From the NCBI GenBank assembly GCA_903928055.1, contig CAIYPG010000154.1, positions 5,774 through 69,773 of the forward strand: DNA of 64,000 bases, written 5' to 3'. Shown one piece after another: positions 6,191 through 41,395 of the stretch (position 1 is the first letter of the stretch; each line of letters starts with the position of its first letter). The notes below the pieces were generated by a model. It made no database searches. It worked only from the letters and a program-made list of their open reading frames with translations, and was not told the origin of the DNA. A program made the position numbers and the translations under genes. Source of the stretch: an uncultured beta proteobacterium. GTDB lineage: Bacteria > Pseudomonadota > Gammaproteobacteria > Burkholderiales > SG8-39.

Positions 6191-6595
6191 ATGGCCAAGC
6201 AGCCCAACGCACCCGCAGCGACCCGCGTTCGCAAGAAGGTGAAGAAGAACGTTGCCGAAGGCATCGCGCACGTCCACGCGTCCTTCAACAACACCATCAT
6301 CACGATCACCGACCGCCAGGGCAACGCGCTTTCCTGGGCGACCTCGGGTGGCGCCGGCTTCAAGGGCTCGCGCAAGTCGACTCCGTTTGCCGCGCAGATC
6401 GCCGCCGAGGCGGCAGGTCGCGCTGCGCAGGAATGCGGTGTCAAGAATCTCGAAGTACGCATCAAGGGCCCAGGCCCGGGACGCGAATCCGCAGTCCGCG
6501 CGCTGAACGCGCTCGGCCTGAAGATCACCAGCATCGCCGACGTAACGCCGGTGCCGCATAACGGCTGCCGCCCGCCCAAGCGGCGCCGGATCTAG
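6191..6595 (+). CDS. rpsK: 30S ribosomal protein S11
   Basis: 134 aa, ...[30 protein letters not shown]... Confidence 0.98.
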
Positions 6596-6612
6596 TCGAA
6601 CAAGAGGAAGTC

Positions 6613-10220: not shown

Positions 10221-10904
10221 ATGAACTGTTTACGCCAGATGATGCGCGTGCCGGCAGTGCAGGGCGTGATCGCGTTTGCCGCCATCCTGCTTGCGGTGCC
10301 GGCCGTCGCCCAACTCCCGCCCCCGCCTGACACGCTGTCCCGGCAACCCGTATTCGAGGCGATCGAGCGCAATGACAATGTTGCGCTGGATCGCCTGATC
10401 GCGGCGGGCGCGCATCTTTCGGCGCGCAACGACGATGGCGAGCCGCCGCTTTACGTCGCCGCCGAGCAGGCCAATTTCGAGGCATTGAAGCGCCTGATTG
10501 CAGGCCGGGCCGATCCGCGCCTGCGCACACCGAATGGCGAGACCGCGTTGCATGCGGCAGCCATGCAGGGTGACTCCGACTTCGCGCGGGTGCTCATTGA
10601 TGCGGGTGCCGATCCGAATGCGCTCAACCGAAACGGCGAAACGCCGTTTGCCTGGGCGGCCATGACAGGCACGCTGCATACGGCGCGACTCCTCGCGGAG
10701 CGCGGTGCATTGATCGACTCCGCGGACGAAAATGGAAACACGCCGCTGCACGGCGCTGCCAAGGCCGGCAACCTGCCCATGGTGGCCTGGCTTCTTGAGC
10801 GGAAGGTGCGCACCGGTCAGCGCAACCGCTTTGGGCAGACCGCCTACGACCTGGCGCGGGAGCGCGAACATCCGGATGTCGCCGCCCTGCTGCAGACGCG
10901 CTGA
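10221..10904 (+). CDS. exported ankyrin-repeat protein
   Basis: 227 aa. N-terminal signal peptide (...AAILLAVPAVA-QL), then about 5 ankyrin repeats (e.g. NGETALHAAAMQGDSDFARVLIDAGADPN, NGNTPLHGAAKAGNLPMVAWLLE). Confidence 0.88.
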   Translation: MNCLRQMMRVPAVQGVIAFAAILLAVPAVAQLPPPPDTLSRQPVFEAIERNDNVALDRLIAAGAHLSARNDDGEPPLYVAAEQANFEALKRLIAGRADPRLRTPNGETALHAAAMQGDSDFARVLIDAGADPNALNRNGETPFAWAAMTGTLHTARLLAERGALIDSADENGNTPLHGAAKAGNLPMVAWLLERKVRTGQRNRFGQTAYDLAREREHPDVAALLQTR

Positions 10905-11018
10905 ACGCATGCATTGACATGCAGGAGTGGCTGCATCGGATCGCCGTATAATGGTTTCACATCAACCGTACGGTGGCGGCATGCCCGCAGACCGGAAAAT
11001 CCACAAGGAGAGGGAGCC

Positions 11019-11489
11019 ATGACTGACAAGGTTGTCATCAAGACGATGGATGAGTTGCGCGCCAAGATCGGCCAGGAAGTTGCCGTGGGCAAATGGCTCA
11101 CCGTCACCCAGGAACTGATCAACAAGTTCGCCGAAGCCAGCGGCGATTACCAGTGGATCCACGTCGATGTCGAACGCTGCAAGAAGGAATCGCCTTTCAA
11201 GACGACGATTGCCCACGGCAATCTGACGCTCTGCCAGTTGTCATCGATCGGTCGCAACTGCGACATTGAACTGCCTCCGGCCAAGATGGGCGTCAACTAC
11301 GGCAGCAACAAGGTGCGCTTTACCGGCGTGGTTCCGGTTGGCTCGCGCATCCGCGGCCGCTACAAGCTGCTCGATATCAAGGACGTGGATGCCAGGACTT
11401 CGCTGATCACCTGGGGTGTCACCGGTGAGATCGAAGGGGGCACCAAGCCCATTTTCATCGCCGAGACGCTGTCGCGGCGGGTCGAATAA
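11019..11489 (+). CDS. MaoC-like (R)-hydratase / hotdog-fold dehydratase
   Basis: 156 aa from the ATG at 11019 (AAGGAGAGGGAG RBS). ...FAEASGDYQWIHVDVERCKKESPFKTTIAHGNLTL... is the MaoC/NodN motif. The track ORF 10914.. is a 5' over-extension. Confidence 0.85.
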   Translation: MTDKVVIKTMDELRAKIGQEVAVGKWLTVTQELINKFAEASGDYQWIHVDVERCKKESPFKTTIAHGNLTLCQLSSIGRNCDIELPPAKMGVNYGSNKVRFTGVVPVGSRIRGRYKLLDIKDVDARTSLITWGVTGEIEGGTKPIFIAETLSRRVE

Positions 11490-29348: not shown

Positions 29349-30320
29349 ATGAAAAAAAACGTACGGACAATTGTTTTGCTTCTGGCTTTGCTGGCACAGG
29401 TCACCGCTTTCGCGCCAGCCCACGCGCAGACCTACCCCACCAAGCCGATCCGGGTCATCCTGCCTTACGCGCCCGGCGGCGGCGCCGAGACGCAGACGCG
29501 CATGGTCACCGGCAAGGTATCCGAACTCCTTGGCCAGCCCATGCTGATCGAGAACCGTCCCGGTGGCGCCTTCGCCATCGCCACCGGCTTCGTCGCCAAG
29601 TCCGCCCCGGACGGCTACACCCTGTACAGCACCTACTCCTCCATGCTGACCGCCGCGTTGACCGTGAAGGACTTTCCCATCGACGTCATCAAGAGCTTCG
29701 CGGTGGTGTCCTGGCTGACCGAGTCCGGCACCATACTGGCGGTGCCGGCTTCCTCGGAGGCCCACAGCCTCAAGGACCTCATGGACATGGCGCGCAAATC
29801 GTCCAGGCAACTCAGCTACGGTTCCACAGGCCTGGGCGGCACCCAGCACCTGAATGCCGAGATGGTGATGCTGGCGGCGCATGCCAAGGGCGTGCATGTA
29901 CCCTACAAGGGATCGGCCGACGCGGCCACGGCGCTGCTCGGCCAGCAGATCGATTTTTCCTTCGTCGATAATTCCGCGCGGCCGCTGATCAAGGCGGGCA
30001 AGCTGCGTGCACTGGTGGTTAGTTCCTCGCGGCGCTCCGCCGGCCTGCCGGACGTGCCCACCGTGCAGGAGTCCATCGGCCTGCCGGGGGCGGCCACCCG
30101 CAACTACTACCTGGTGCCCGCCGCCACCCCGGCCGCCATCGTCGGCCAGATCAACGCCGCCGTCCTCAAGGTGCTGCGCATGCCCGACATGATCGAAAAA
30201 ATGACGGCGAACGGCTACGACATCATTGCCACCTCGCCCGAGGAAGGGACGAAGGCCTACGTCGGCGAGTACCAGGCCTATTCCAAGCTGCTGAGCGAAA
30301 TCGACCTGAAAATCGATTAG
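29349..30320 (+). CDS. Bug/TctC-family substrate-binding protein (paralogue 6)
   Basis: 323 aa. ...APAHAQTYPTKPIRVILPYAPGGGAET...HVPYKGS.... Confidence 0.9.
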   Translation: MKKNVRTIVLLLALLAQVTAFAPAHAQTYPTKPIRVILPYAPGGGAETQTRMVTGKVSELLGQPMLIENRPGGAFAIATGFVAKSAPDGYTLYSTYSSMLTAALTVKDFPIDVIKSFAVVSWLTESGTILAVPASSEAHSLKDLMDMARKSSRQLSYGSTGLGGTQHLNAEMVMLAAHAKGVHVPYKGSADAATALLGQQIDFSFVDNSARPLIKAGKLRALVVSSSRRSAGLPDVPTVQESIGLPGAATRNYYLVPAATPAAIVGQINAAVLKVLRMPDMIEKMTANGYDIIATSPEEGTKAYVGEYQAYSKLLSEIDLKID

Positions 30321-30603: not shown

Positions 30604-31437
30604 ATGCAAGCCACGGATTGCTTTATCGATGTGGATGGACTGCGTATCCACTACCTTGACTGGGGCGGCGCCAATGACGAGGCGGACGAGGCGAACGACA
30701 GGCAGCCCCTGCTGTTGCTGCACGGCATCGGCCGCACTGCGCACAACTTCGACCACCTCGCGCCACAACTGGCGCAGCGCTACCGCGTCATCGCCCCCGA
30801 CCTGCGCGGCCATGGCGATTCGGGCTGGCATCCCGAGGCCGCCTACCTTGTAGAGGACTATGCCCGGGACATCGAGGCACTGATCATCGAACTCGGCCTG
30901 GAGAATCTCGTGCTGTGCGGGCAGTCCACGGGCGGGCGTGTGGTGCAGGTGATCGCCGGCAGGCAGCCCGAACTGGTCGCAGCGGCCATCGTCGAGGACG
31001 TCGGTCCCGAGCGGCCGAAGAAGGTTTCGGAGCGCCGCCTGCGGCGCATGGGCGATGAATCCAAAGGCTGGGCCTCGCATGACGAACTGCTGGCCGCGAT
31101 CAAGCCGCAGTATCCGCTCACCCCCGAGGCGACGCTGCGCCACTTCGTGATGCATGGCTCGAAGCGCCGCCGCGATGGGCGCATTGTGTGGAAGCGCGAC
31201 CCGAGCATCGCCGAAGGATTTGTCACAACTGAGATCTGGCGCTATGTGCGCGACATCCAGGCACCCATCCTCTACATCCTCGGTGGCGCCAGCGACATCG
31301 TCCCGCCCGAAACCCAGGCAGAGCTGAAGGAGGCGCTGCCGCAGGTGGAGATCGTCACGCTGCCCGGGCTCGGCCACTACCCCAGCGACGAAAAGCCCGA
31401 CGAGTTCCTGCGCGTGGTGCGGGAGTTTCTGGGCTGA
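30604..31437 (+). CDS. alpha/beta hydrolase
   Basis: 277 aa. ...LRIHYLDWGG...LLLLHGIGRTAHNFDHL...DLRGHGDSGW...GQSTGG.... Confidence 0.88.
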   Translation: MQATDCFIDVDGLRIHYLDWGGANDEADEANDRQPLLLLHGIGRTAHNFDHLAPQLAQRYRVIAPDLRGHGDSGWHPEAAYLVEDYARDIEALIIELGLENLVLCGQSTGGRVVQVIAGRQPELVAAAIVEDVGPERPKKVSERRLRRMGDESKGWASHDELLAAIKPQYPLTPEATLRHFVMHGSKRRRDGRIVWKRDPSIAEGFVTTEIWRYVRDIQAPILYILGGASDIVPPETQAELKEALPQVEIVTLPGLGHYPSDEKPDEFLRVVREFLG

Positions 31438-31507: not shown

Positions 31508-31598
31508 TCATGTCTCGTACGTCATGATCATAATTTTCATGAAAATACCTGTAAAATATTGATTAGAAATCAATTCTGATCATATTAATCGGGGTATT
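31508..31598 (+). promoter_or_regulatory. AT-rich intergenic module (copy A)
   Basis: CATGATCATAATTTTCATGAAAATACCTGTAAAATATTGATTAGAAATCAATTCTGATCATATTAATCGGGG. Contains palindromes ATGATCAT, TTTTCATGAAAA and ATTGATT-AGA-AATCAAT. Shares TTTCATGAA and TGATCATATT, at similar spacing, with copy C. Confidence 0.55.
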
Positions 31599-31715
31599 CT
31601 GTCCGGCGTCCAGCAGTGCGCCTCGCTTTTCAAGCGATGGCGGGCAGGGGAGGTGGGGGCTATAGTCGGCCACGGCGCCCCGGTTCTGCGGGCGCAACTT
31701 TGCCGGGAGGGCGAA

Positions 31716-32000
31716 GTGGACAAGGCCCAGCATTCTCAAGATCCCGTGGTTGCCTACAAGCGCATCCAGCGCCTGCTTGCGCACTGGACGATCGAAGAGC
31801 ACCTGAAGAAGAGCTTCACGCTGCTGGCGCTCGGCACCTTCCTCCTGACCTGCGCCGCAATCCCCTGCGTCAGCGAACTCGCCCCGGCCGACGCCGGCCT
31901 GCAGCCCGTGCTGTGGATGCTGCTGGCGTGGCTGGTGTTCGTAGCCATTCTCTCGGTGGCGGTGATCCGGATCGAGACGCGGGAGAAGGAAAGGTTGTGA
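31716..32000 (+). CDS. small 2-TM membrane protein, unknown function
   Basis: 94 aa from GTG 31716 (GGGAGGG RBS). Two hydrophobic helices (FTLLALGTFLLTCAAIPCV; VLWMLLAWLVFVAILSVAVI). Native high GC3. No family recognised. Confidence 0.5.
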   Translation: MDKAQHSQDPVVAYKRIQRLLAHWTIEEHLKKSFTLLALGTFLLTCAAIPCVSELAPADAGLQPVLWMLLAWLVFVAILSVAVIRIETREKERL

Positions 32001-32075
32001 GTTCGAGCTGGTTTGAATGCATGGGACCCGAATCCATTTGATTTCCGTGTGGTTCAGTCGGTACTCTGATACCCA

Positions 32076-32462
32076 ATGATCAATCCAAACAAACATCGCG
32101 GATCGAGTTTCGACGACTTCCTGATTGAGCAGGGCATGCACAAGGACGTGCAGGCGGCTGTCCTGAAGCGTGCTCGGCGTTCAGATCGTGTTACAAAATC
32201 CAAAGGTAATGTATTCATCGATCTGGGGTTCAAACCGGACGAAGCGGTGGTACTCGCCATGCGCGCTGATCTGATGGCAAGACTGCGCACCGTGATCAAC
32301 GAACGCGGCTGGACGCAGCAGGAAGCATCCAAGCGGCTCGGTATCGGGCAATCGCGCATCTCCGATCTGGTGCGCGGTAAGTGGGACAAGTTCAGTCTGG
32401 ACATGCTGATCACGCTGGCGGAGCGGGCGGGGCAAAAGCCCAAGCTGGTGTTAGACGCGTGA
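32076..32462 (+). CDS. XRE-family HTH protein, HigA/antidote-like (orphan antitoxin or R-M controller candidate)
   Basis: 128 aa. ...NVFIDLGFKPDEAVVLAMRADLMARLRTVINERGWTQQEASKRLGIGQSRISDLVRGKWDKFSLDMLITLAERAG.... Confidence 0.85.
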   Translation: MINPNKHRGSSFDDFLIEQGMHKDVQAAVLKRARRSDRVTKSKGNVFIDLGFKPDEAVVLAMRADLMARLRTVINERGWTQQEASKRLGIGQSRISDLVRGKWDKFSLDMLITLAERAGQKPKLVLDA

Positions 32463-32612
32463 GGTTTTGAATGGGGTATCTGGTGTCGTGAACTTTAAAT
32501 GGCGCTAGGTAAAATCTACCCACTTCACTCGGCTACAATTTAGTCAATCGGGAAATTCATAGATGGCTTGAAGCTATTTGACTGCGGTAATTGGCGATAT
32601 TTAGGACTACAA

Positions 32613-33341
32613 ATGTTCGAGAAGCTGAAGAAGAAGGGCTTTCAAGTCTTGCCTTTGCATCACGCAGAGGCAATTTTGAAACATGACATGACTTCAGCTG
32701 TAGGAGAGCTTGAGTCAGTTCTGCTTGATATCCAAGTCCCAGTTGAGGAATTAGTGTACGGCGGTGGTGGCGAGGGCGAGTTAACTCAGCGACTTCGGCG
32801 GACGTTGTCTGACACGCACGGGTGGAAAAAACATGTTTTTGAAATCAAAAAAACAGTCGACGGTAAAGAAAAAGAATCGATTTCGCATGAGATAGATCAT
32901 GTTAAGGAATTCAAGAATGGAACGTTTGCGCTTGAAATTGAGTGGAACAATAAAGACCCATTCTATGACCGAGATCTTGAAAACTTCAAACGTTTGCATG
33001 CGGACGGGGTTATATCAATTGGCGCAATCGTTACTCGGGGGACTTCCTTACATGAGGGAATGCGCGAGCTTATTGCATCATTTGCTGTCAAAGAGAGCAT
33101 TGACAGCGTGAGTAAGCTCTCGAAATTTTATACTCCGACCCCACGACAGATTGACCTAATTGAGAAAGCTGTGAAATCAAAAGGATCGTTTTCCCAGGGT
33201 TGGGCTCATGCATTTGTCGCTGATAAATTTGGTGAAGCGACTACCCATTGGCGAAAACTAGAGGATCGTGTTCATCGTGGTGTTGGAAATCCCTGCCCGC
33301 TTTTGCTAATTGGCATTCCAAAGAGTGTAGTTGTTGTTTAA
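32613..33341 (+). CDS. type II restriction endonuclease, BamHI/BglII/BstYI-like (PD-(D/E)XK)
   Basis: 242 aa from ATG 32613. ...SHEIDHVKEFKNGTFALEIEWNNKDPFYDRDLENF... (D...ExE) and the C-terminus ...HRGVGNPCPLLLIGIP resemble, from memory, BstYI (...DFVKDRVAIEVQFGK..., ...GRGVPAVPLVLIGVAP). Adjacent methyltransferase. Confidence 0.7.
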   Translation: MFEKLKKKGFQVLPLHHAEAILKHDMTSAVGELESVLLDIQVPVEELVYGGGGEGELTQRLRRTLSDTHGWKKHVFEIKKTVDGKEKESISHEIDHVKEFKNGTFALEIEWNNKDPFYDRDLENFKRLHADGVISIGAIVTRGTSLHEGMRELIASFAVKESIDSVSKLSKFYTPTPRQIDLIEKAVKSKGSFSQGWAHAFVADKFGEATTHWRKLEDRVHRGVGNPCPLLLIGIPKSVVVV

Positions 33342-33381
33342 ATAATCTTTATTACCGAATTCCCTCGGAGTGAATAACGTA

Positions 33382-34062
33382 ATGGCAAAAATTTTCAACC
33401 TCACCCAAGTCAACCCGTCAGAAGATCTACTTGATAAGGAAAAAGGTCCTTACTCAACAATATTGGCAGATCCACCATGGCAATTTCAAAATCGCACTGG
33501 AAAGATGGCGCCTGAGCATAAACGCTTGCTTCGCTATCCGACCATGGAGCTAAAGGAGATTATGGAGTTGCCGGTTGCGAAGTTGGCAGCGGCGAAATCT
33601 CATCTATATCTCTGGGTGCCAAATGCTCTGCTTCAAGATGGGCTAAAAGTAATGGAGGCGTGGGGGTTTACTTATAAATGCAATTTGGTCTGGTACAAGA
33701 TAAGAAAAGATGGTGGGCCGGACGGTCGCGGTGTTGGGTTCTATTTTAGGAACGTTACAGAGCTTGTGCTATTCGGGGTGCGGGGGAGTATGCGAACGCT
33801 AAAACAGGGGCGTACTCAAGTTAATTTACTTTCTACTCGAAAACGAGAACACTCTCGGAAGCCAGATGAGTTTTATGATCTTGTAGAGGGGTGTTCACCG
33901 GGGCCCTATCTAGAATTGTTTGCCAGATTCCGTCGGCCAGGTTGGCACCAGTGGGGTAACGAGGATGTTGAAGAAAATTCAGATCGTGGTGTGGCCAAAC
34001 GGATCGCGCATGCTCAGCCTCAGTTGAAGCTGCTCCAGGTTCCGAAGCGTTATCGCGCATAG
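33382..34062 (+). CDS. MT-A70-family N6-adenine DNA methyltransferase
   Basis: 226 aa (GTG 33370 is an alternative start). Catalytic ILADPPWQF motif, ...HLYLWVPN...WGFTY...HSRKPDEFYDLVE.... Confidence 0.85.
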   Translation: MAKIFNLTQVNPSEDLLDKEKGPYSTILADPPWQFQNRTGKMAPEHKRLLRYPTMELKEIMELPVAKLAAAKSHLYLWVPNALLQDGLKVMEAWGFTYKCNLVWYKIRKDGGPDGRGVGFYFRNVTELVLFGVRGSMRTLKQGRTQVNLLSTRKREHSRKPDEFYDLVEGCSPGPYLELFARFRRPGWHQWGNEDVEENSDRGVAKRIAHAQPQLKLLQVPKRYRA

Positions 34063-34117
34063 TGCTAGTTCGGTGATGGGCGCACAAGATGTGTGCTCAT
34101 CAATTCTAGAAGATGCG

Positions 34118-34981
34118 TTAACGCACTGCACTTACAATCCCTCGCATCATCGAACTCCCCGCATCCCCATGCGCCGCCATCCCCAGCGTGGAATGATTGT
34201 CTTCGGGGAACTCCAGCACGGTTACCGCACACCCCGCCGAACGGAGTACCTGCACGTATTCATCGGTCTGGTTGATCCAGCCCGGTGATTCCCTGCCTCC
34301 GGTGAAGATCAGGATCGGCAGCGGCCGCAGCGGCGGGTTGAACATGGGGCTGTTGAACTTCACGCGATCCGGGGTGAGCTTGATCACTTCGTTCAGCGTG
34401 ACCTGTGGCACGAAGCCGATGTCGTAGATGCCGCTGGACAGCGCGGCACCAATGAGGAAATCTGACGGCACGCCGCGCGAAGTCCAGTCGCAGGCCAGCG
34501 CCATGGCGCAGAGGTGCGCGCCGGCCGAATGGCCCGAGATGAACACCTTCGCGCCGGGTACGCCCAGTCGCGAGCTGTTGCGATACACCCAGGCGATGCC
34601 ATCGAGGACCTGTGCGGTGAGTTGTTCCAGCGTGACGTCCGGGCAGAGGTCGTAGCCCAGCACGACGGTGGGCATGCCCAGTTGCACCGAGGCCGGAGCG
34701 ACATAACTGGAGGTGTCCTTGTGGCCCTGGCGCCAGAAGCCGCCGTGCACGTACACATGGATGACTTTGCCGTTTCCCACTGTCCTGTCAGGCGCAGGAA
34801 AGAAATCCAGCAACTGCCGTGGACCGGTGCCGTAACGGATGTTGCGTTCCGGATTGAGCGTGGCGATGGCCTTCGCGCTTGCGGCATCGCGCGCCGCCAT
34901 CGCCGGCCCGCGCGATTCGCCTGACACCAGGTTCGGGCTGAAATGCCATTCAAGCTTGTCCGTGTAGTCAGTCCAGGGCAT
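34118..34981 (-). CDS. alpha/beta hydrolase (arylformamidase/esterase-like)
   Basis: 287 aa from MPWTDYTDKLEWHF... (GAGGA RBS). HVYVHGGFW oxyanion motif, GHSAGAH nucleophile elbow. The track ORF to 35413 is a 5' over-extension. Confidence 0.85.
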   Translation of the reverse strand: MPWTDYTDKLEWHFSPNLVSGESRGPAMAARDAASAKAIATLNPERNIRYGTGPRQLLDFFPAPDRTVGNGKVIHVYVHGGFWRQGHKDTSSYVAPASVQLGMPTVVLGYDLCPDVTLEQLTAQVLDGIAWVYRNSSRLGVPGAKVFISGHSAGAHLCAMALACDWTSRGVPSDFLIGAALSSGIYDIGFVPQVTLNEVIKLTPDRVKFNSPMFNPPLRPLPILIFTGGRESPGWINQTDEYVQVLRSAGCAVTVLEFPEDNHSTLGMAAHGDAGSSMMRGIVSAVR

Positions 34982-35071
34982 GGCGCAGGTTTCCTCAAAG
35001 ATCATCAGGTGCGGGAGCGCAGATGGTAGGCTCAGGGCTGTTTTCCTGCAGCAGGTAAAGGTGGGCACGCG

Positions 35072-35521
35072 ATGTCGATTGCAATCGGGCAGGGCCCGTG
35101 GCGGAAGATCGCCTGCGCAGAATGCCATGGCGGGGACATCCGCATCGACGGGTTGCGCGCCGGGGTCGGCATCCTGGTGTATGACGCCACCTCGAAGGCC
35201 ACCTTCGGCGGACATTTCCCGGCACCTGATGCACAGAGCGCCGGGGGCGTTGACGGACTGTTCGCGATGCTGCAGCAATCGATGGAAGATTTCCGCGACA
35301 GCCCGATCGTTCACATCTATGCCTCGGGCTGCGCCGAGCAGGATCATGAGTCCTGGAAATGTACCGGCCCCGTTGCGCAGCGCTTCGTCGATGCCGAACT
35401 TCGCAGGCGCCACCGGCCGAACCAGCAGCGCGACATTCGCTGGCCGCGCAGCAATGTGCTCACGTCGGAGATGTCGCTATGTCCGGAGAGCGGCGCCTAC
35501 GAATGCGGCTTTCGCTGGTAG
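35072..35521 (+). CDS. hypothetical protein
   Basis: 149 aa. High GC3 codon pattern typical of the host. Divergent from the hydrolase gene. No family recognised. Confidence 0.45.
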   Translation: MSIAIGQGPWRKIACAECHGGDIRIDGLRAGVGILVYDATSKATFGGHFPAPDAQSAGGVDGLFAMLQQSMEDFRDSPIVHIYASGCAEQDHESWKCTGPVAQRFVDAELRRRHRPNQQRDIRWPRSNVLTSEMSLCPESGAYECGFRW

Positions 35522-35590
35522 GTGGGGGTTAAGCGCCGGAAACATTGCTGGGGCCCGGCATTGCTGCGCAGGCCCCCTTTCTTCTGATGC

Positions 35591-36592
35591 CTAGTCGCTC
35601 AGCTTGATGCCGGTCTTCTTGATCAGGTTGTCCCACATGTCGTATTCCTTCACGAAGGCCTTTTTCAGGTCGGCAGGTGAAGTCTTCGGGCCGGGCTCTG
35701 CGCCGTCGGCGGCGAATTTTTCCTTCATGTCGGGCAGGTTGACGATCTGGTTGATACCCTGGTTCAGCGCCGTCTGGATGGGCGCGGGCGTTCCGGCCGG
35801 GACATACAGGTAGTAGGAATTGCCCAGCTCGAATCCGGGCACCGTATCGGCAATCACCGGCACATCAGGGAACGCGGCAATTGGCGTGGTGCTGGCCGCG
35901 CCGATCGCCTTCAGCTTGCCGCTGTGTATGAAGGGCGAGACGCTGGCGCCGAGGGAAAAGATCATTTGCAGGCGGCCACTCATCAGGTCGGTGAAGGCCT
36001 GTCCGTTGCCCTTGTAGGGAATGTGCGTGAGCTTGGTTCCGGTGGCGAGCTGGAACTGCTCGAAGCCGAGGTGATTCACACCGCCGATGCCGGAGGACCC
36101 GTAGTTCAGTTCGCCCGGGTGGGCCTTGGCGTAGGTGATCAGTTCCTTCACCGTGTTGATATTGAGCGAGGGCACGATGGCCAGCAGATAGGACTGCGTG
36201 GTCGTCTGCACCGCGACATCAAATGCCTGGCGCACGTCGTAGTCCACTTTCTTTGTCACGCCGTTCAGGATCACCAGGTTGCCCGAGTGGAGCAGGGTGT
36301 AGCCATCGGGCGCCGAGCTCTTCAGCGTTTCCATGGCGATGACGCCGTTGCCGCCGGCGCGGTTGTCCACCAGCACGGCCTGGCCGGTGCGTTCGCCCAG
36401 CTTGGCCCCGACGGCGCGCGCGGTGATGTCATTGGACCCGCCCGCGGCGGAACTCACCAGCATGCGTATCGGGCGATTGGGGAAGTTGTTCGCCAGCGGT
36501 CCGGGCTTAGCCTGCGCAAGGACCTGCAGCGGCAGCGCCACCTGCAGGGCAACGGCGGCGGACAGCAGTCCGCGAATGATGGATGTGTTCAT
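35591..36592 (-). CDS. Bug/TctC-family substrate-binding protein (paralogue 7)
   Basis: 333 aa from MNTSIIRGLL.... ...NFPNRPIRMLVSSAAGGSNDI...HIPYKGN...; ends ...GIKLSD like paralogue 8. Confidence 0.9.
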   Translation of the reverse strand: MNTSIIRGLLSAAVALQVALPLQVLAQAKPGPLANNFPNRPIRMLVSSAAGGSNDITARAVGAKLGERTGQAVLVDNRAGGNGVIAMETLKSSAPDGYTLLHSGNLVILNGVTKKVDYDVRQAFDVAVQTTTQSYLLAIVPSLNINTVKELITYAKAHPGELNYGSSGIGGVNHLGFEQFQLATGTKLTHIPYKGNGQAFTDLMSGRLQMIFSLGASVSPFIHSGKLKAIGAASTTPIAAFPDVPVIADTVPGFELGNSYYLYVPAGTPAPIQTALNQGINQIVNLPDMKEKFAADGAEPGPKTSPADLKKAFVKEYDMWDNLIKKTGIKLSD

Positions 36593-36621
36593 GTTCTCTC
36601 CTTGGGTTTCGGCAGGCGATT

Positions 36622-37653
36622 TCAGTCGCTGAGCTTGATGTTGTTCTTGCGGATCAGGTTGTCCCACATTTCGTATTCTTTCACGAACGCGCTCTTGAAT
36701 TCCACCGGCGAGCTCGGCGGCCCCGGCTCGGCGCCATCAGCGGTGAATTTTTCCTTCATGTCGGGCAGGTTGACGATCTGGTTGACCGCGCGGTTCAGCG
36801 CTGTTTGCAGGGGCATCGGTGTTCCGGCTGGAACGTACAGGTAATAGGAGTTTCCGATTTCGAAACCCGGCAGGCCCTGCTCGGCAAGGGTCGGGATGTC
36901 GGGAAAGGCCTGCGTGCGGCTGAGGCTGCCCACGCCCACCGCCCTGAGCCTGCCGCTCCTGAGGTAGGGCGCCATGCTGACGCCGCTGGAACAGATCATC
37001 TGGATGCGGCCGCTCATCAGGTCCGGATAGACGCCTGCGCTGCCCTTGTAGGGGATGTGCGTCAGGCTGATGCCGGTGGCGGCCTGCAGCAGCTCGAAGC
37101 ACAGGTGGTTGACTGAACCGATTCCGCCCGAGCCGTAGTTCAGCGCGCCCGGATGGCCTTTGGCATAGGCAACCAGTTCCTTCACGCCATTCACGCCGGG
37201 CGCCGGAATGATCGCGATCACGTAGGGCTGCGTGGTCATCATCACTGCCACGTCGAAAGCGGTGCGCACGTCATAACTCACGCGCCTGGCGACGCCGTTC
37301 AGCAGCAGGGCGTTGCTGGAGGCGAGCAGGGTGTAGCCATCCTTTGCCGATTGCTCCAGTGTGTCCATGGCGATGACGCCATTGCCGCCGGCGCGATTCT
37401 CGACGATCACTGATTGGCCGGTGCGTTCAGTCAGTTTCTGCGCCACGGCGCGTGCGGTGATGTCCAGTCCTCCACCGGCGGCCGAACTCGCCAGCATGCG
37501 CACGGTGTGGTTGGGGTAGGTGTCGAGCAGCGGGCCGGGCTTTGTTTGTGTCTGGGCATGGGCGCGGGGCATGGCTGCCGCCGACAGGCAGGCGAGCACG
37601 AGCAGGGCGACCTGCCATGTATGCACATGACGCTGATTGAGAACTTTTTTCAT
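36622..37653 (-). CDS. Bug/TctC-family substrate-binding protein (paralogue 8)
   Basis: 343 aa. ...TYPNHTVRMLASSAAGGGLDI...HIPYKGS.... Tandem with paralogue 7 (29-nt gap). Confidence 0.9.
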   Translation of the reverse strand: MKKVLNQRHVHTWQVALLVLACLSAAAMPRAHAQTQTKPGPLLDTYPNHTVRMLASSAAGGGLDITARAVAQKLTERTGQSVIVENRAGGNGVIAMDTLEQSAKDGYTLLASSNALLLNGVARRVSYDVRTAFDVAVMMTTQPYVIAIIPAPGVNGVKELVAYAKGHPGALNYGSGGIGSVNHLCFELLQAATGISLTHIPYKGSAGVYPDLMSGRIQMICSSGVSMAPYLRSGRLRAVGVGSLSRTQAFPDIPTLAEQGLPGFEIGNSYYLYVPAGTPMPLQTALNRAVNQIVNLPDMKEKFTADGAEPGPPSSPVEFKSAFVKEYEMWDNLIRKNNIKLSD

Positions 37654-37851
37654 TGCTCCTCCGGCGAACTTTGATTTTTAAGTCATCAAGCCGCGCAGGA
37701 TGTCTGCGCGTCTGTCGGATCTGCTGTCTGTGCCGTGTGGCCCCGTCCGCCATGCAGTAAGATGTTGTCGCGTGAAGTGGCGGCAGCAAAAAAATCATCC
37801 GCCCGCGCAATCCATACGCAATACCGTGCCCTACGGCACCCAGGAGAGACC

Positions 37852-38817
37852 ATGAAAAAAACGATAGTACTCGCAGCAGGCATTTTACTCAGCATGACCG
37901 CATCGTGGGTCGGGGCACAGAGTGCCTTCCCCGCCAAGCCCGTGCGCATCATCGTCGGCTTTGATCCGGGCGGCCCGAATGACACCCAGGCGCGCATGGT
38001 CGGCCAGAAAATGAGCGAAACCATGGGTCAGGCGGTGATCGTCGAGAATCGCACCGGCGCCGACGGCATCATTGGTGCGGATCTCGCAGCAAAAAGCCCG
38101 GCGGATGGCTACACCCTGCTGCTGGTATCCGCGGGCCATGCCATCAACACGAATTTCGTGAAGCAGCTCCCCTATCACCCGGTCAATGATTTTTCATCGG
38201 TCATCCAGCTTTCGTCGGCGCCGTTCGTGCTGGTCGTGCATCCCTCGGTGCCGGCACAGAACACTGCGGAACTGATCCGCTATGCCAAGGCGAATCCCGA
38301 CATGCTTCACTACGCTTCCACCGGCCTGGGCAGCTCGCTGATGATGGGCATGGAACTGTTCAATCTCCTCGCCGGCATCAAGACCGTGCATGTGCCCTAC
38401 AAGGGCGGTGCTCCGGCGACTTCGGACCTGATCGCCGGCCGCGTGCAGGTGATGACGAACAACGTGGTGGGCTCGCTGCCCAACGCGCGTGCCGGCAAAC
38501 TGCGCGCACTGGCCGTGACCTCGGCACAGCGCTCGCCGCTTGCGCCGGATCTGCCGACCATTGCGGAAACCGTGCCCGGCTATGAAATGGATGCGTGGTA
38601 CGGACTGCTCGCGCCCAAGGGTGTCCCGGCGGCGGCGGCCAACCGCCTGAATGCCGAGGCGAACAAGGCGCTGGCTGGCGCCGACGTCAAGCAGCGCTTC
38701 GCCGTGCTCGGCCTCACGCCGGTGGGTGGCACGCCCGAGGCCTTCATGAACCTGGTGAAGAGCGAATCGGTGAAGTGGGCGAAGGTCGTGAAGGAAAGCG
38801 GCATCACCGTGGAGTGA
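37852..38817 (+). CDS. Bug/TctC-family substrate-binding protein (paralogue 9)
   Basis: 321 aa from MKKTIVLAAGILL... (AGGAGAG RBS). ...AFPAKPVRIIVGFDPGGPNDT...HVPYKGG.... Confidence 0.9.
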   Translation: MKKTIVLAAGILLSMTASWVGAQSAFPAKPVRIIVGFDPGGPNDTQARMVGQKMSETMGQAVIVENRTGADGIIGADLAAKSPADGYTLLLVSAGHAINTNFVKQLPYHPVNDFSSVIQLSSAPFVLVVHPSVPAQNTAELIRYAKANPDMLHYASTGLGSSLMMGMELFNLLAGIKTVHVPYKGGAPATSDLIAGRVQVMTNNVVGSLPNARAGKLRALAVTSAQRSPLAPDLPTIAETVPGYEMDAWYGLLAPKGVPAAAANRLNAEANKALAGADVKQRFAVLGLTPVGGTPEAFMNLVKSESVKWAKVVKESGITVE

Positions 38818-38829
38818 TACGCAGGCAGG

Positions 38830-38864
38830 GCTGATCCCGGCCGAAGTGCGTGGCCGGGATCAGC
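38830..38864. terminator. long hairpin between convergent genes
   Basis: GCTGATCCCGGCC-(9 nt)-GGCCGGGATCAGC, a 13-bp perfect stem. The T-run follows 11 nt later, so not a textbook intrinsic terminator. Confidence 0.5.
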
Positions 38865-38881
38865 GTTGCTGCACATTTTTT

Positions 38882-39736
38882 CTAGCGCAGTTCCGGCCAG
38901 AATTTCAGCGCGGCACCGGCCATCAGGTTTTCCCGGTCTTTTACCGAGAAGGGCTTGATCGCATCCTTCGCGGCTTCCAGTGCGCTTGCGTAGCTCCAAT
39001 CCGGTTCATGGATGGCCGGATAGTTCGAGCCCCACATCAGTCGCTCCGAACCGTAGGCATCGACCAGACGCTTCATGAAGTCCTGGGGCTTTACATTCGC
39101 CTTGAGGCAATTCTGGATCAGGTTCGTGGAGAACTTCACCGAGAAGTTCGGAAAGCGCGCCAGGTCAAAAAGCGACTGCGCCTTGGCAAAGGGCGCGCCA
39201 TCATCGACCTGCACGCCCGAGGTGTGGTCCACGGTTATTGCGATGTCCGGATAGCGCTCGAGCATTCGTGTGAAGGCGGCATGGGCCGGCGGCCGTACCC
39301 CCATCATCACCATGGGCACTTTCAGCGCCCTGCAGGCATCCCACACCGGGAAGGTCCGTGGATCATCGACGGCATATTCCAGCGGCCTGATGCGCACGCC
39401 GCACAGGCCACGCCGTACCCAGTCGCGCACGGTGTCGGCCGCACCGGGGGCGAGCGGATCGATCATGCCCACCGGCGTGAAGCGCTGGCGCTGCACAGCA
39501 CCGGCCTGTTTGTTGTGGCGGATGGAACTGTCCAGCGTATAGCGATTGTCGTAGCCGTGTCCTGCCAGGGCCTGCACCAGCACCGCACCGGTGACGCCGG
39601 CGGCGTCCATGCGCGCGACGATCTCCTCCATATCCTTGGCATCGGTGGGCACCCAGGCGAGCTTTGTCACATGGATCTGCGGATAGTCCGGCTGGTTCTT
39701 GGCAATGACGTGCACATGCGTGTCGATGATGTCCAT
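38882..39736 (-). CDS. amidohydrolase-2 family metal-dependent hydrolase/decarboxylase
   Basis: 284 aa. MDIIDTHVHV... (HxH metal motif), TIM-barrel amidohydrolase pattern, ...WGSNYP.... Confidence 0.8.
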   Translation of the reverse strand: MDIIDTHVHVIAKNQPDYPQIHVTKLAWVPTDAKDMEEIVARMDAAGVTGAVLVQALAGHGYDNRYTLDSSIRHNKQAGAVQRQRFTPVGMIDPLAPGAADTVRDWVRRGLCGVRIRPLEYAVDDPRTFPVWDACRALKVPMVMMGVRPPAHAAFTRMLERYPDIAITVDHTSGVQVDDGAPFAKAQSLFDLARFPNFSVKFSTNLIQNCLKANVKPQDFMKRLVDAYGSERLMWGSNYPAIHEPDWSYASALEAAKDAIKPFSVKDRENLMAGAALKFWPELR

Positions 39737-39770
39737 GCACTTCTCCGGGAAATGGGGGTGTTTTGCGCCG

Positions 39771-39835
39771 GCAATAATAATCGATTTAATATCACATTAA
39801 CCAGTTTTGTCGATTATGTTATTGTTTTTGGAATC
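39771..39835 (+). promoter_or_regulatory. AT-rich intergenic module (copy E)
   Basis: GCAATAATAATCGATTTAATATCACATTAACCAGTTTTGTCGATTATGTTATTGTTTTTGGAATC in the divergent spacer; right end ~45 nt before the Bug paralogue 10 start. Confidence 0.4.
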
Positions 39836-39882
39836 GGAGGTCTTCGCGTTCCGACAAACGGGCGAAAGTGAGGAGGGCGAGC

Positions 39883-40872
39883 ATGGGGCATCTGCGACTG
39901 TCGGTGAGGACGTGCCTATTCATCATTCTGCTGCTGGCGTGGAGCGCGCGGGTGCAGGGCCAGGAGGCCGCTGCCTACCCCTCGAAGCTGGTGACCATCG
40001 TGCTGCCGTTTCCTCCGGGCGGCCCGTCGGAGAAGGAGTCGCGCCTCTACGCCACGAAAATGACGGCGCTGCTCGGCCAGACCTTCCTGCTTGACTACAA
40101 GCCCGGCGCCGCCGGCACGATCGCCGCCGCCCAGGTGGCAAAAGCCAGGCCCGATGGCTATACGCTGCTGATCGCCACCGGCGGATTCACCACCAATCCG
40201 GCGCTGTACAAGGACCTGAGCTTTGATCCGGTGAAGGACTTTGCCCCGGTCTCGCTGATGACCCAGCGCACCTCCGTGCTGCTCATCAACCCGAACCATC
40301 CGGCGAAGACCTTTGCCGAATACATCGCCTATGCAAAAAAGAATCCGGGAAAAATCAATTACGCCACGGTGGGTGCAGGCGGCATCGCGCACCTGGGCGC
40401 CGCCTGGCTGCACAGCGCCAGCGACGTGAAGGTGACCTATGTGTTTTACAAGGGCGGCACGGCGCTGATGCTCGACCTGATGGAAGGTCGTCTCGATGCC
40501 ACCTCGGCGCCGCTGTTGTCGGTGCTGCCGCAGATCAAGGCCGGCAAGCTGCGCGCCCTGGGACTGATGAACGACAAGCGCTCCGACCTCCTGCCCGGCG
40601 TGCGCAGCATTGCCGAGCAGGGCGTGCCCGGATTCAATTACGCGAGCTGGTTTGGCGTGGTCGCGCCCGGCGCGACTCCCGTGGCGATCGTCAACAAGCT
40701 GGCCGAAAATCTGGCGATCACTGCCCATGCGCCGGAAGTGGCTGCGCCGCTCGAGGCCGAAGGCAGCAGCATGGTCGGCAGCACGCCGGCGGAATTCCGC
40801 AAGGTCATTGTCGCGGAGACCGCGATCTGGAAGAAGGTCGTGGCCGAGGCCGGGATCAAACTGGAGGAGTAG
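39883..40872 (+). CDS. Bug/TctC-family substrate-binding protein (paralogue 10)
   Basis: 329 aa from ATG 39883 (AGGAGG 6 nt upstream). ...AAAYPSKLVTIVLPFPPGGPSEK.... Confidence 0.9.
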   Translation: MGHLRLSVRTCLFIILLLAWSARVQGQEAAAYPSKLVTIVLPFPPGGPSEKESRLYATKMTALLGQTFLLDYKPGAAGTIAAAQVAKARPDGYTLLIATGGFTTNPALYKDLSFDPVKDFAPVSLMTQRTSVLLINPNHPAKTFAEYIAYAKKNPGKINYATVGAGGIAHLGAAWLHSASDVKVTYVFYKGGTALMLDLMEGRLDATSAPLLSVLPQIKAGKLRALGLMNDKRSDLLPGVRSIAEQGVPGFNYASWFGVVAPGATPVAIVNKLAENLAITAHAPEVAAPLEAEGSSMVGSTPAEFRKVIVAETAIWKKVVAEAGIKLEE

Positions 40873-40882
40873 TGCCTCTAGG

Positions 40883-41395
40883 CTATTGCAGCATCGCCGA
40901 ACAGGCCTGCACTTCGTTGTTGATGGCCTGCTCGATGTCCCTGCGCATCCTGCCGGAGTAGCCGCCAAAGAACAGGGTGGTGGCCGGAACGCGCTCGCCG
41001 TTGTGCAACACCAGGGCGAGGCGATAGGAAGGGCCGCTCTCACTGGTGGCGGGCCTGACCTCGAACTCGGCGTGCTCAAAATCGCGGATCGCGACCTCTG
41101 CCGGGCCGCCCGCCCGTTCAACGACCAGTTTGTTCGCGGATTTGTTGATGGTCACCCTGAATTTCGAGCGTCCGGCGATCCACGCAAATGTTCCGGAACC
41201 GGCGAGGCTCGCGGCAATCACGCCGGCCACGATGAACCAGGGCAGGTTGCCGACGGAATAAAAGGCCACACCGAGGAAAATCAGCGGCATCACCATGCTC
41301 GTGCCCATCAGCAGTTTCAGGCTGGGTTCCGCGGACACCACCAGCCGGCCTGTCGCGTCACGTTCGATGCGGCATGCGGCGAACATTCCCTGCAT
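40883..41395 (-). CDS. membrane protein, unknown function (2 TM + soluble C-terminal domain)
   Basis: 170 aa. Hydrophobic hairpin MVMPLIFLGVAFYSV / WFIVAGVIAASLAGSGTFAWI. 24 nt downstream of, and co-oriented with, Bug paralogue 11. Confidence 0.6.
   Translation of the reverse strand: MQGMFAACRIERDATGRLVVSAEPSLKLLMGTSMVMPLIFLGVAFYSVGNLPWFIVAGVIAASLAGSGTFAWIAGRSKFRVTINKSANKLVVERAGGPAEVAIRDFEHAEFEVRPATSESGPSYRLALVLHNGERVPATTLFFGGYSGRMRRDIEQAINNEVQACSAMLQ

Follow-up and report, generated by a model that had tools for sequence, protein, structure and literature searches.

Gene content of the locus

The window analysed here, a 64,000-nucleotide stretch of betaproteobacterial DNA (contig CAIYPG010000154.1), contains two adjacent, co-oriented genes that encode a BglII/BstYI-family nuclease (R) and an MT-A70-family methyltransferase (M). 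The two genes very likely constitute a self-contained type II restriction–modification (R-M) module that was horizontally transferred into a spot that varies between strains and is bounded by two convergent hydrolase genes. A first-pass annotation of the window had described an abrupt drop in G+C content that encloses two co-oriented genes separated by 40 nt, and both descriptions are accurate. The G+C content is 0.42–0.49 across ~32,350–34,000 versus 0.62–0.70 on both sides (300-nt windows), and the gap between the genes measures exactly 40 nt. The R-M module has a G+C content of 46% in a window of 0.631. By feature, the value is 0.446 for R, 0.483 for M, 0.568 for an upstream XRE-family regulator gene (XRE), and 0.658 and 0.630 for the left and right hydrolase genes, respectively.

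The R open reading frame (ORF) was started at the ATG at 32,613 and not at the TTG at 32,568 because all homologs start with MFEKLKKKGF. Proteins 100% identical to R and to M are already present in public databases without names (P0001 and P0121). In co-oriented relatives the gap between the two genes ranges from 16 to 122 nt, and blastn alignments with other carriers continue through the 40-nt spacer.

Structure and conservation of the nuclease R

R matches the Pfam family Endonuc-BglII (PF09195) over profile positions 1–162 of 163, with an E value of 6.5e-22 and a score of 78.4 bits (cut-off, 26). Because sequence searches of the PDB missed BglII, BstYI and BamHI, a fold comparison was used. 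The AlphaFold2 model of R has a mean pLDDT (predicted local distance difference test) value of 85.3. In a Foldseek comparison of the model with the PDB, the best eight matches are all BstYI (1SDO and 1VRR) or BamHI (1BHM, 2BAM and 3BAM) structures, with a probability of 1.00 and E values of 2e-5 to 2e-4, and the next match drops to an E value of 0.018. The resemblance to BstYI and its relatives that the first-pass annotation had noted is evident in both the family assignment and the fold comparison, which returned PD-(D/E)XK nucleases.

The D-x(n)-E-x-E core and the C-terminus quoted in that annotation were located at R residues 94–114 (IDHVKEFKNGTFALEIEWNNK) and 222–236 (RGVGNPCPLLLIGIP), respectively. 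The D95, E108 and E110 residues are invariant in 23 homologs with 52–87% identity to R, and presumably correspond to the BamHI residues D94, E111 and E113. Across three subfamilies that are ~31–32% identical to R, D95 and E110 show no variation, and only D or E occurs at position 108. Invariance over three nuclease subfamilies, including the Acinetobacter type, extends to N112, K114, D115, D119-R-D-L122, T141-R142, T210-T211, K215-L216, R219 and C228-P229. Every column that is invariant in the 23 aligned homologs is present in R of the window. By these comparisons, R has the BstYI/BamHI PD-(D/E)XK fold with a conserved D95...E108-x-E110 acidic triad.

R homologs number more than 7,600 in databases, and several of them bear the NCBI name 'BglII/BstYI family type II restriction endonuclease'. 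The closest 120 homologs are 75–87% identical to R; their sources include Betaproteobacteria, Planctomycetota, Chlorobi, Spirochaetota and Nitrospirae, among other groups. R of the window therefore belongs to a 75–87% identity clade that is spread over many phyla.

Sequence features of the methyltransferase M

M matches the full profile (positions 1–172) of the Pfam family MT-A70 (PF05063) with an E value of 2.7e-31 and a score of 109.3 bits (cut-off, 23.9). The PADLOC model MTase_II, a type II methylase model derived from REBASE, also matches M (E 3.5e-94). In sequence searches of the PDB, the best match of M is Tetrahymena MTA1 (E 2.8e-19), followed by METTL3 (E 2.9e-13). The MT-A70 motif ILADPPWQF, singled out in the first-pass annotation, occupies M residues 27–35 with DPPW at residues 30–33. 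P31 and W33 never vary among 80 M homologs, and for D30 and P32 conservation is 90% or higher. Thousands of M homologs occur in many phyla, giving the same picture as for R. Over the whole domain, M is 33% identical (E 2e-30) to a Tn1549-type Enterococcus MT-A70 enzyme on pMG2200. Judging by its context, the pMG2200 gene is presumably that of M.EfaBMDam. By profile and motif, M is assigned to the MT-A70 (beta-class, DPPW) methyltransferases.

R and M as a widespread pair

Eighty genome loci encoding an R homolog were collected for neighbourhood comparison. An MT-A70 homolog directly adjoins R in 79 of the 80, with the two genes arranged R>M in 33 loci, convergently in 30, M>R in 14 and divergently in 2. 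The identities of the R and M homologs to the window pair are correlated (r = 0.87). Adjacency that persists through rearrangement, together with shared divergence, is the hallmark of an obligate functional pair, and R and M co-evolve as such a pair over many phyla. The pair is annotated by RefSeq on the conjugative plasmids pRiA4b (Agrobacterium) and pXfc37 (Xanthomonas citri) and on Comamonas and Roseomonas plasmids, and it is annotated in both the GenBank and RefSeq records of Mesorhizobium phage vB_MloP_Lo5R7ANS. Iyer et al. (2016) mention MT-A70 methylases of 'BglII R-M systems' (PMC4738411). A literature search returned no paper that characterises an MT-A70-linked BglII-family nuclease and no biochemical characterisation of this nuclease subfamily.

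The first-pass annotation had considered the combination of such a nuclease with an MT-A70 enzyme unusual, given that methylases of characterised BamHI/BglII-type systems are N4-cytosine enzymes. The premise about the methylases agrees with the literature, in which M.BamHI and M.BglII are N4-methylcytosine (N4mC) enzymes and M.BstYI is 'possibly' one (PMC2890505). The conclusion drawn from it does not hold. The MT-A70 gene adjoins R in nearly all of the loci compared, the pair is routinely annotated in RefSeq and the link has been published (PMC4738411). In addition, a BglII/BstYI-family nuclease of Acinetobacter baumannii A118 is protected by N6-methyladenine (m6A) (PMC10287943). The N4mC partners are a few cloned prototypes and do not represent the family at large; BglII/BstYI-family nucleases pair with at least three kinds of methylase, namely N4mC, Dam-type m6A (A118) and MT-A70. 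The R-M pair is of an ordinary, widespread and already annotated kind, to which the window locus adds one more copy.

On Comamonas pZM22-2 (L090, 2123–3666) and Roseomonas p5 (L092, 2123–3630), the methylase is 65–75% identical to M of the window. The adjoining nuclease is 28–32% identical to R and carries a long N-terminal extension, and there is a 4-nt overlap between the nuclease and methylase genes. The pairs on these plasmids seem to have kept the methylase and swapped its nuclease partner. An 'abortive infection family protein' gene directly follows the pair on pZM22-2.

Acquisition of the module and borders of the insertion

DNA similarity between the window and other carriers is confined to 32,594–34,038, that is, to the two genes. 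It begins at 32,594–32,613 and leaves the AT-rich spacer upstream of R outside. In 75 of 77 carrier loci the module has a lower G+C content than its flanks, by 7.8 points on average, and it thus looks like a guest at nearly all of its locations.

Contigs of relatives were obtained via homologs of the right-flank hydrolase. In five contigs from two related lineages (L085–L087 and L088–L089; genus level, ~79% nucleotide identity), the hydrolase homologs are directly convergent and lie 107–326 bp apart, compared with 2,680 bp in the window, and R, M and XRE are all absent between them. Similarity to these contigs stops exactly at 31,437 and picks up at 34,135–34,137. Because the short spacer of the relatives has an equivalent at window positions 31,519–31,592, the inserted DNA was delimited to ~31,600–34,117. 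It contains a 115-codon ORF of host-like G+C content, the XRE gene (0.57), R and M, and this mixed composition suggests a mosaic or stepwise history. The right hydrolase is not truncated by the insertion since its C-terminus, GIVSAVR*, resembles the GIVSQR* of L088. The low G+C content, the restriction of similarity to the module and the relatives that lack R, M and XRE show the pair to be foreign to the locus and, on these comparisons, apparently acquired by horizontal transfer into a high-G+C betaproteobacterial (Burkholderiales-like) chromosome. The comparison with island-free relatives that the first-pass annotation had proposed thus bears out acquisition and changes the extent of the island. 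The compositional drop is real at 32,463–34,117, where that annotation had placed it, but the insert is larger and also includes XRE and the 115-codon ORF (Table 1).

A further contig, L084, matches the window at 99% identity across 6.9 kb, from 34,135 to 41,000. It departs at the right edge of the insert into unrelated sequence (10848–10978) and ends 131 nt past the breakpoint. Divergence at the same point indicates that the spot is polymorphic within the species. The site appears to be a strain-variable insertion hotspot that possibly holds a repeated element in the L084 strain. The hydrolase of L084 ends in GIAATVGIKR*, compared with GIVSAVR* in the window. For a same-species empty site, an exact-pattern metagenome scan gave no match, and a protein-based scan gave only relatives of at most 66% identity without synteny.

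Table 1. Features of the R-M locus and its flanks in window coordinates
Feature	Position	Strand	Basis or remark
Left flank, alpha/beta hydrolase gene, host	30604..31437	+	Homolog annotated Abhydrolase_1/Hydrolase_4 in L085–L089
Native AT-rich spacer with two TGATCA-centred boxes, kept left of the insertion	31519..31592	.	Like boxes in relatives
115-codon ORF, gene status uncertain	31653..32000	+	Absent between hydrolase genes in L085–L089
XRE/HTH_37 gene, 128 aa, antitoxin-like regulator without toxin partner	32076..32462	+	Pfam HTH_37, E 8.6e-18
AT-rich spacer 5' of R, G+C 0.413, presumed promoter region	32463..32612	+	Not conserved among other carriers
R gene, BglII/BstYI-family type II restriction endonuclease (predicted), 242 aa, intact	32613..33341	+	PF09195, AlphaFold2/Foldseek, conserved triad
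R-M spacer, 40 nt	33342..33381	+	ORF coordinates
M gene, MT-A70-family (beta-class) N6-adenine DNA methyltransferase (predicted), 226 aa from ATG	33382..34062	+	PF05063, DPPW
Spacer from M stop codon to stop codon of convergent hydrolase, right edge of insert	34063..34117	.	Similarity to relatives resumes at 34,135–34,137
Right flank, Abhydrolase_3 (arylformamidase-like) gene, host	34118..34981	-	Pfam PF07859

The borders carry no recognisable mobility determinants, in line with the first-pass annotation, which had listed no integrase, transposase, tRNA or clear target duplication there. ARAGORN detected no tRNA or tmRNA gene in the 64-kb window, the flanking genes (TctC-family receptors and hydrolases) include no integrase or transposase, and the only repeats at the borders are short, imperfect and inside genes, with no convincing flanking direct repeat. 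One 20-nt imperfect direct repeat (18/20), at 31851–31870 (TGCGCCGCAATCCCCTGCGT) and 34170–34189 (TGCGCCGCCATCCCCAGCGT), roughly brackets the insert. It is probably due to chance because both copies are inside ORFs and G+C-rich. A serine recombinase was rejected as the vehicle: it occurs near the pair on 3 of 4 annotated plasmid loci, but the total is just 5 of 81 loci, and the window has none. The likeliest route is carriage on a plasmid or phage followed by recombination into the variable spot.

The spacer between the convergent hydrolases contains two TGATCA-centred AT-rich boxes, AATATGATCATATTTG ... AATAATATGATCATAT, which are ~52–55 nt apart. The boxes are found in three lineages that are ~79% identical (window, 31519–31592; L085, ~11030–11100; L088, ~6540–6610) and are also found in L086. 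The boxes may serve for protein binding, belong to a small RNA gene or mark a recombination hotspot. TGATCA occurs at 38 sites in the window, at expectation (observed/expected ratio (O/E), 1.05). The 115-codon ORF has a G+C content of 0.65 and encodes two hydrophobic stretches without a Pfam match.

Probable recognition site of the R-M pair

The relatives of R and M with characterised specificity act on sites with a GATC core. The family nucleases BglII and BstYI cut AGATCT and RGATCY, respectively, and RG(m6A)TCY and Dam methylation each block the BglII/BstYI-family enzyme of A. baumannii A118 (PMC10287943). The MT-A70 enzymes M.EfaBMDam (Tn1549) and PhiBZS1_p32 make G(m6A)TC, as evidenced by MboI resistance and DpnI sensitivity (PMC7556043). 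They are the only bacterial MT-A70 DNA methylases with a tested specificity that were found in the literature. The clade of M (65–75% identity) is well conserved and pairs with differing nuclease subfamilies. A methylase clade with several nucleases, and residues that are invariant over the nuclease subfamilies, fit a shared target.

Site avoidance was analysed in carriers of clade B (50 loci, 0.84 Mb), in carriers of clade A, which includes the window (0.55 Mb), and in a non-carrier control (0.46 Mb). The avoidance data are informative after internal comparison of NGATCN sites, comparison with the non-carrier control and separation of the clades. All classes of RGATCY are depleted in clade B (Table 2), where AGATCC/GGATCT has a z value of -8.1 and is the fifth most depleted of 2,013 non-palindromic classes. 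The window itself contains 33 RGATCY sites, 3 of which are inside the R-M module. GGATCC is strongly under-represented in the window, with small numbers (4 sites; O/E 0.28 by a maximal-order Markov estimate); the direction of this shortage fits an RGATCY- or GGATCC-cutting activity in the host.

Table 2. Observed/expected ratios of RGATCY sites in carriers and non-carriers
Set	AGATCT	GGATCC	AGATCC/GGATCT
Clade B	0.52 (3rd of 58 palindromes)	0.63 (10th of 58)	0.71
Clade A	0.63	0.74	0.95
Non-carrier control	0.74	0.99	1.00

RGATCY methylation has been reported in other bacteria. Methylococcus capsulatus MCA0246 is a 651-bp adenine methylase gene with a REBASE-predicted RGATCY specificity, and the motif is methylated in the genome (PMC13390346). 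RG(m6A)TCY has also been reported in S. meliloti, B. ambifaria, Azospirillum thiophilum and a marine metagenome, in reports that do not name the methylase family. The plasmid collection contains no close M homolog on Azospirillum thiophilum replicons. M.CsaI was set aside as an MT-A70 prototype for RGATCY because it resembles the classical GATC (Dam-type) methylases.

On balance, the recognition site is probably of the RGATCY type or is limited to part of it, for instance AGATCT, and the GATC adenine would be the methylated base. The GATC-type core suggested in the first-pass annotation is the best inference available, given the relatives and the partial site depletion. A methyl group at this position would imply that R is blocked by G(m6A)TC, unlike BglII and BstYI, neither of which is blocked by Dam-type m6A (PMC10287943).

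Proposed mechanism and alternative explanations

In the proposed mechanism, M would use S-adenosylmethionine to methylate adenine at N6 on both strands of a short palindromic site, and an R homodimer with Mg2+ would cleave the same site when it is unmethylated, as expected from the two families. Cleavage would destroy incoming phage or plasmid DNA and penalise loss of the module. The module would operate without a controller protein.

A number of points weigh against this mechanism or the proposed site, and they are given here together with the alternatives that they favour. The activity and the site are predictions from family knowledge. Moreover, R precedes M in the operon, although M would have to be established before R acts; internal promoters, as in the EcoRI system, are one precedent for M expression with R first. 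A scan upstream of R found no promoter above the shuffled expectation. The terminator search gave nothing above chance, and no Rfam family reached the gathering threshold in the whole 64 kb.

The same R-M module could recognise a site without a GATC core if its subfamily has diverged so much from BglII and BstYI that their specificity no longer applies. R shares just 13–15% identity with BstYI and BamHI, with TM-scores (template modelling scores) of 0.49–0.64, and searches of PDB sequences with R itself and with a 23-member profile of its subfamily both fail to reach BglII, BstYI and BamHI. In clade A, the clade of the window, AGATCC/GGATCT is not depleted (rank 488 of 2,007), and the partial depletion in this clade could reflect a recent arrival or a narrower site. 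When 6-bp palindromes alone are considered in pooled carriers, the depletion of CTCGAG and CAGCTG equals or exceeds that of AGATCT, so that the ranking is not diagnostic. The non-carrier control was assembled without taxon matching to the carriers, and other RGATCY systems in the carriers may cause the depletion. The RGATCY methylases MCA0246, which is about MT-A70-sized, M.Ath2165II and that of B. ambifaria may or may not belong to the MT-A70 family. Against a site without a GATC core, residues far beyond the triad are invariant in three subfamilies, including an Acinetobacter type with the gene layout of a characterised RGATCY system, the characterised bacterial MT-A70 DNA methylases are GATC-specific and RGATCY is strongly depleted in clade B. 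CTCGAG (0.78) and CAGCTG (0.62) are also depleted in the control, which points to general avoidance. A non-GATC site is, on this evidence, doubtful.

Inactivity or silence of R, by which the pair would be a solitary methylase in effect or a decaying remnant, is unlikely. The family does decay, as in-frame stops occur in 5 of 80 homologous R genes (L007, L023, L024, L030 and L043). The MT-A70 genes beside these five are without stops, and loss of the nuclease first with an intact M is the usual decay route, which leaves a solitary methylase. Solitary RGATCY methylases exist, such as MCA0246 with no restriction gene nearby, and proteomics of B. ambifaria HSJ1 did not detect its RGATCY-assigned methylase; the negative promoter scan also fits a silent R. 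In the window, by contrast, the R frame is intact and has all columns invariant in the 23 homologs, and the low G+C content suggests a recent arrival with little time for decay.

The XRE gene was weighed as a controller (C) gene, which would give the locus a set of three genes (R-M-C), as in the BglII, BamHI and A118 systems. XRE is co-oriented with R, lies 150 nt upstream of it and is inside the inserted DNA; C proteins are helix-turn-helix (HTH) proteins, and the A118 and Acinetobacter sp. TR3 systems have one. However, no homolog of XRE turned up at any of the 80 carrier loci, in a comparison that covered homologs of XRE and not unrelated small HTH genes. XRE is a 128-aa HTH_37 protein whose plasmid relatives overlap RelE/ParE toxin genes, and its G+C content (0.57) differs from that of the module (0.45–0.48). 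XRE was therefore rejected as the controller, and a three-gene system is improbable. The most fitting view of XRE is that of an orphan antitoxin-type regulator, one that shares the insertion by chance and is no part of the conserved module. No recognisable RelE/ParE toxin gene lies beside it in the window, and its N-terminal ~35 residues fall outside the alignment with the closest plasmid homologs.

It is highly improbable that M is an RNA methyltransferase with a functionally unrelated nuclease next to it: MT-A70 enzymes do include the mRNA methylase METTL3, and one abstract (PMC10810198) reportedly describes a prophage-encoded rRNA methyltransferase, but M has a restriction endonuclease as its neighbour in 79 of 80 loci, whatever the orientation and with co-varying divergence, which is the signature of a DNA R-M pair, and it matches the PADLOC type II methylase model.

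Comparison with known systems

The closest counterparts of the two-gene R-M module are the pairs of pRiA4b, pXfc37 and phage vB_MloP_Lo5R7ANS, in which the same two families are adjacent and no controller gene is conserved. The R and M proteins of pRiA4b and pXfc37 are 50–52% and 67–71% identical to those of the window, respectively, and the phage M is 66% identical. These pairs are convergent or otherwise arranged and reside on mobile replicons, whereas the window pair is co-oriented R>M and chromosomal.

BglII, BstYI and BamHI have the Pfam family, the fold and the acidic D...E-x-E core in common with R of the window, and probably also the GATC core of the site. They differ in the methylase: those of BglII and BamHI produce N4mC, whereas the window partner is an MT-A70 enzyme with the adenine-type DPPW motif. 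BglII and BamHI systems also have controller proteins. A classical controller gene of this type is missing from the window locus, where the one HTH candidate, XRE, has no homolog in the 80 loci.

The best functional analogue is the 'RMC' system of A. baumannii A118, in which a BglII/BstYI-family nuclease is protected by m6A, as proposed here. Its site, RG(m6A)TCY, was established by SMRT (single-molecule real-time) sequencing as well as by mutants, and Dam methylation protects (PMC10287943). Unlike in the window, the A118 methylase bears the annotation 'DNA adenine methylase', and an HTH regulator gene lies between M and R. Plasmid pTR3_1 of Acinetobacter sp. TR3 has the A118 gene layout. The TR3 methylase (392 aa) gave no match in the MT-A70 search, and the TR3 nuclease is ~24–32% identical to R of the window.

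On the methylase side, M.EfaBMDam (Tn1549, Enterococcus) and PhiBZS1_p32 (Serratia phage BZS1) share the MT-A70 family and the DPPW motif with M. Both are solitary, on a conjugative transposon and a phage, respectively, and have no nuclease partner, whereas M of the window is paired. The catalytic domain of M is also common to Tetrahymena MTA1/AMT1 and to METTL3–METTL14. The eukaryotic enzymes differ from M in being heteromeric and in acting on ApT in chromatin or on RNA without a nuclease partner. Iyer et al. placed the eukaryotic MT-A70 clade inside a prokaryotic radiation that includes the methylases of BglII R-M systems (PMC4738411).

The M family branches near the root of the eukaryotic MT-A70 group, and this position permits a tentative suggestion. 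The MT-A70 clade near this root may methylate the central ApT of RGATCY/GATC on both strands, in which case the symmetric ApT specificity of eukaryotic AMT1/MTA1-type enzymes could be a relaxed remnant of an R-M ancestor with a GATC core, and the partner nuclease would be a BglII/BstYI relative sensitive to m6A, in contrast to the commercial enzymes. This scenario is possible but speculative.

Taken alone, the window locus offers little gain, being one more common R-M pair and one small strain-variable insertion spot. The pair family has a modest wider value: it is abundant over phyla, plasmids and phages, and its specificity, once established, would apply to thousands of database entries. The family would hinder DNA transfer, an obstacle that Dam methylation of the incoming DNA might overcome, as was shown for the A118 analogue.

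Neighbouring genes

A 10-kb region includes four genes for periplasmic receptors of the TctC/Bug family (29349–30320, 35591–36667, 36622–37653 and 37735–38817), a density that is typical of Burkholderiales and hints at the host lineage. Two of the four are tandem paralogs with ~73% nucleotide identity, and their longest ORFs have 46 nt in common.

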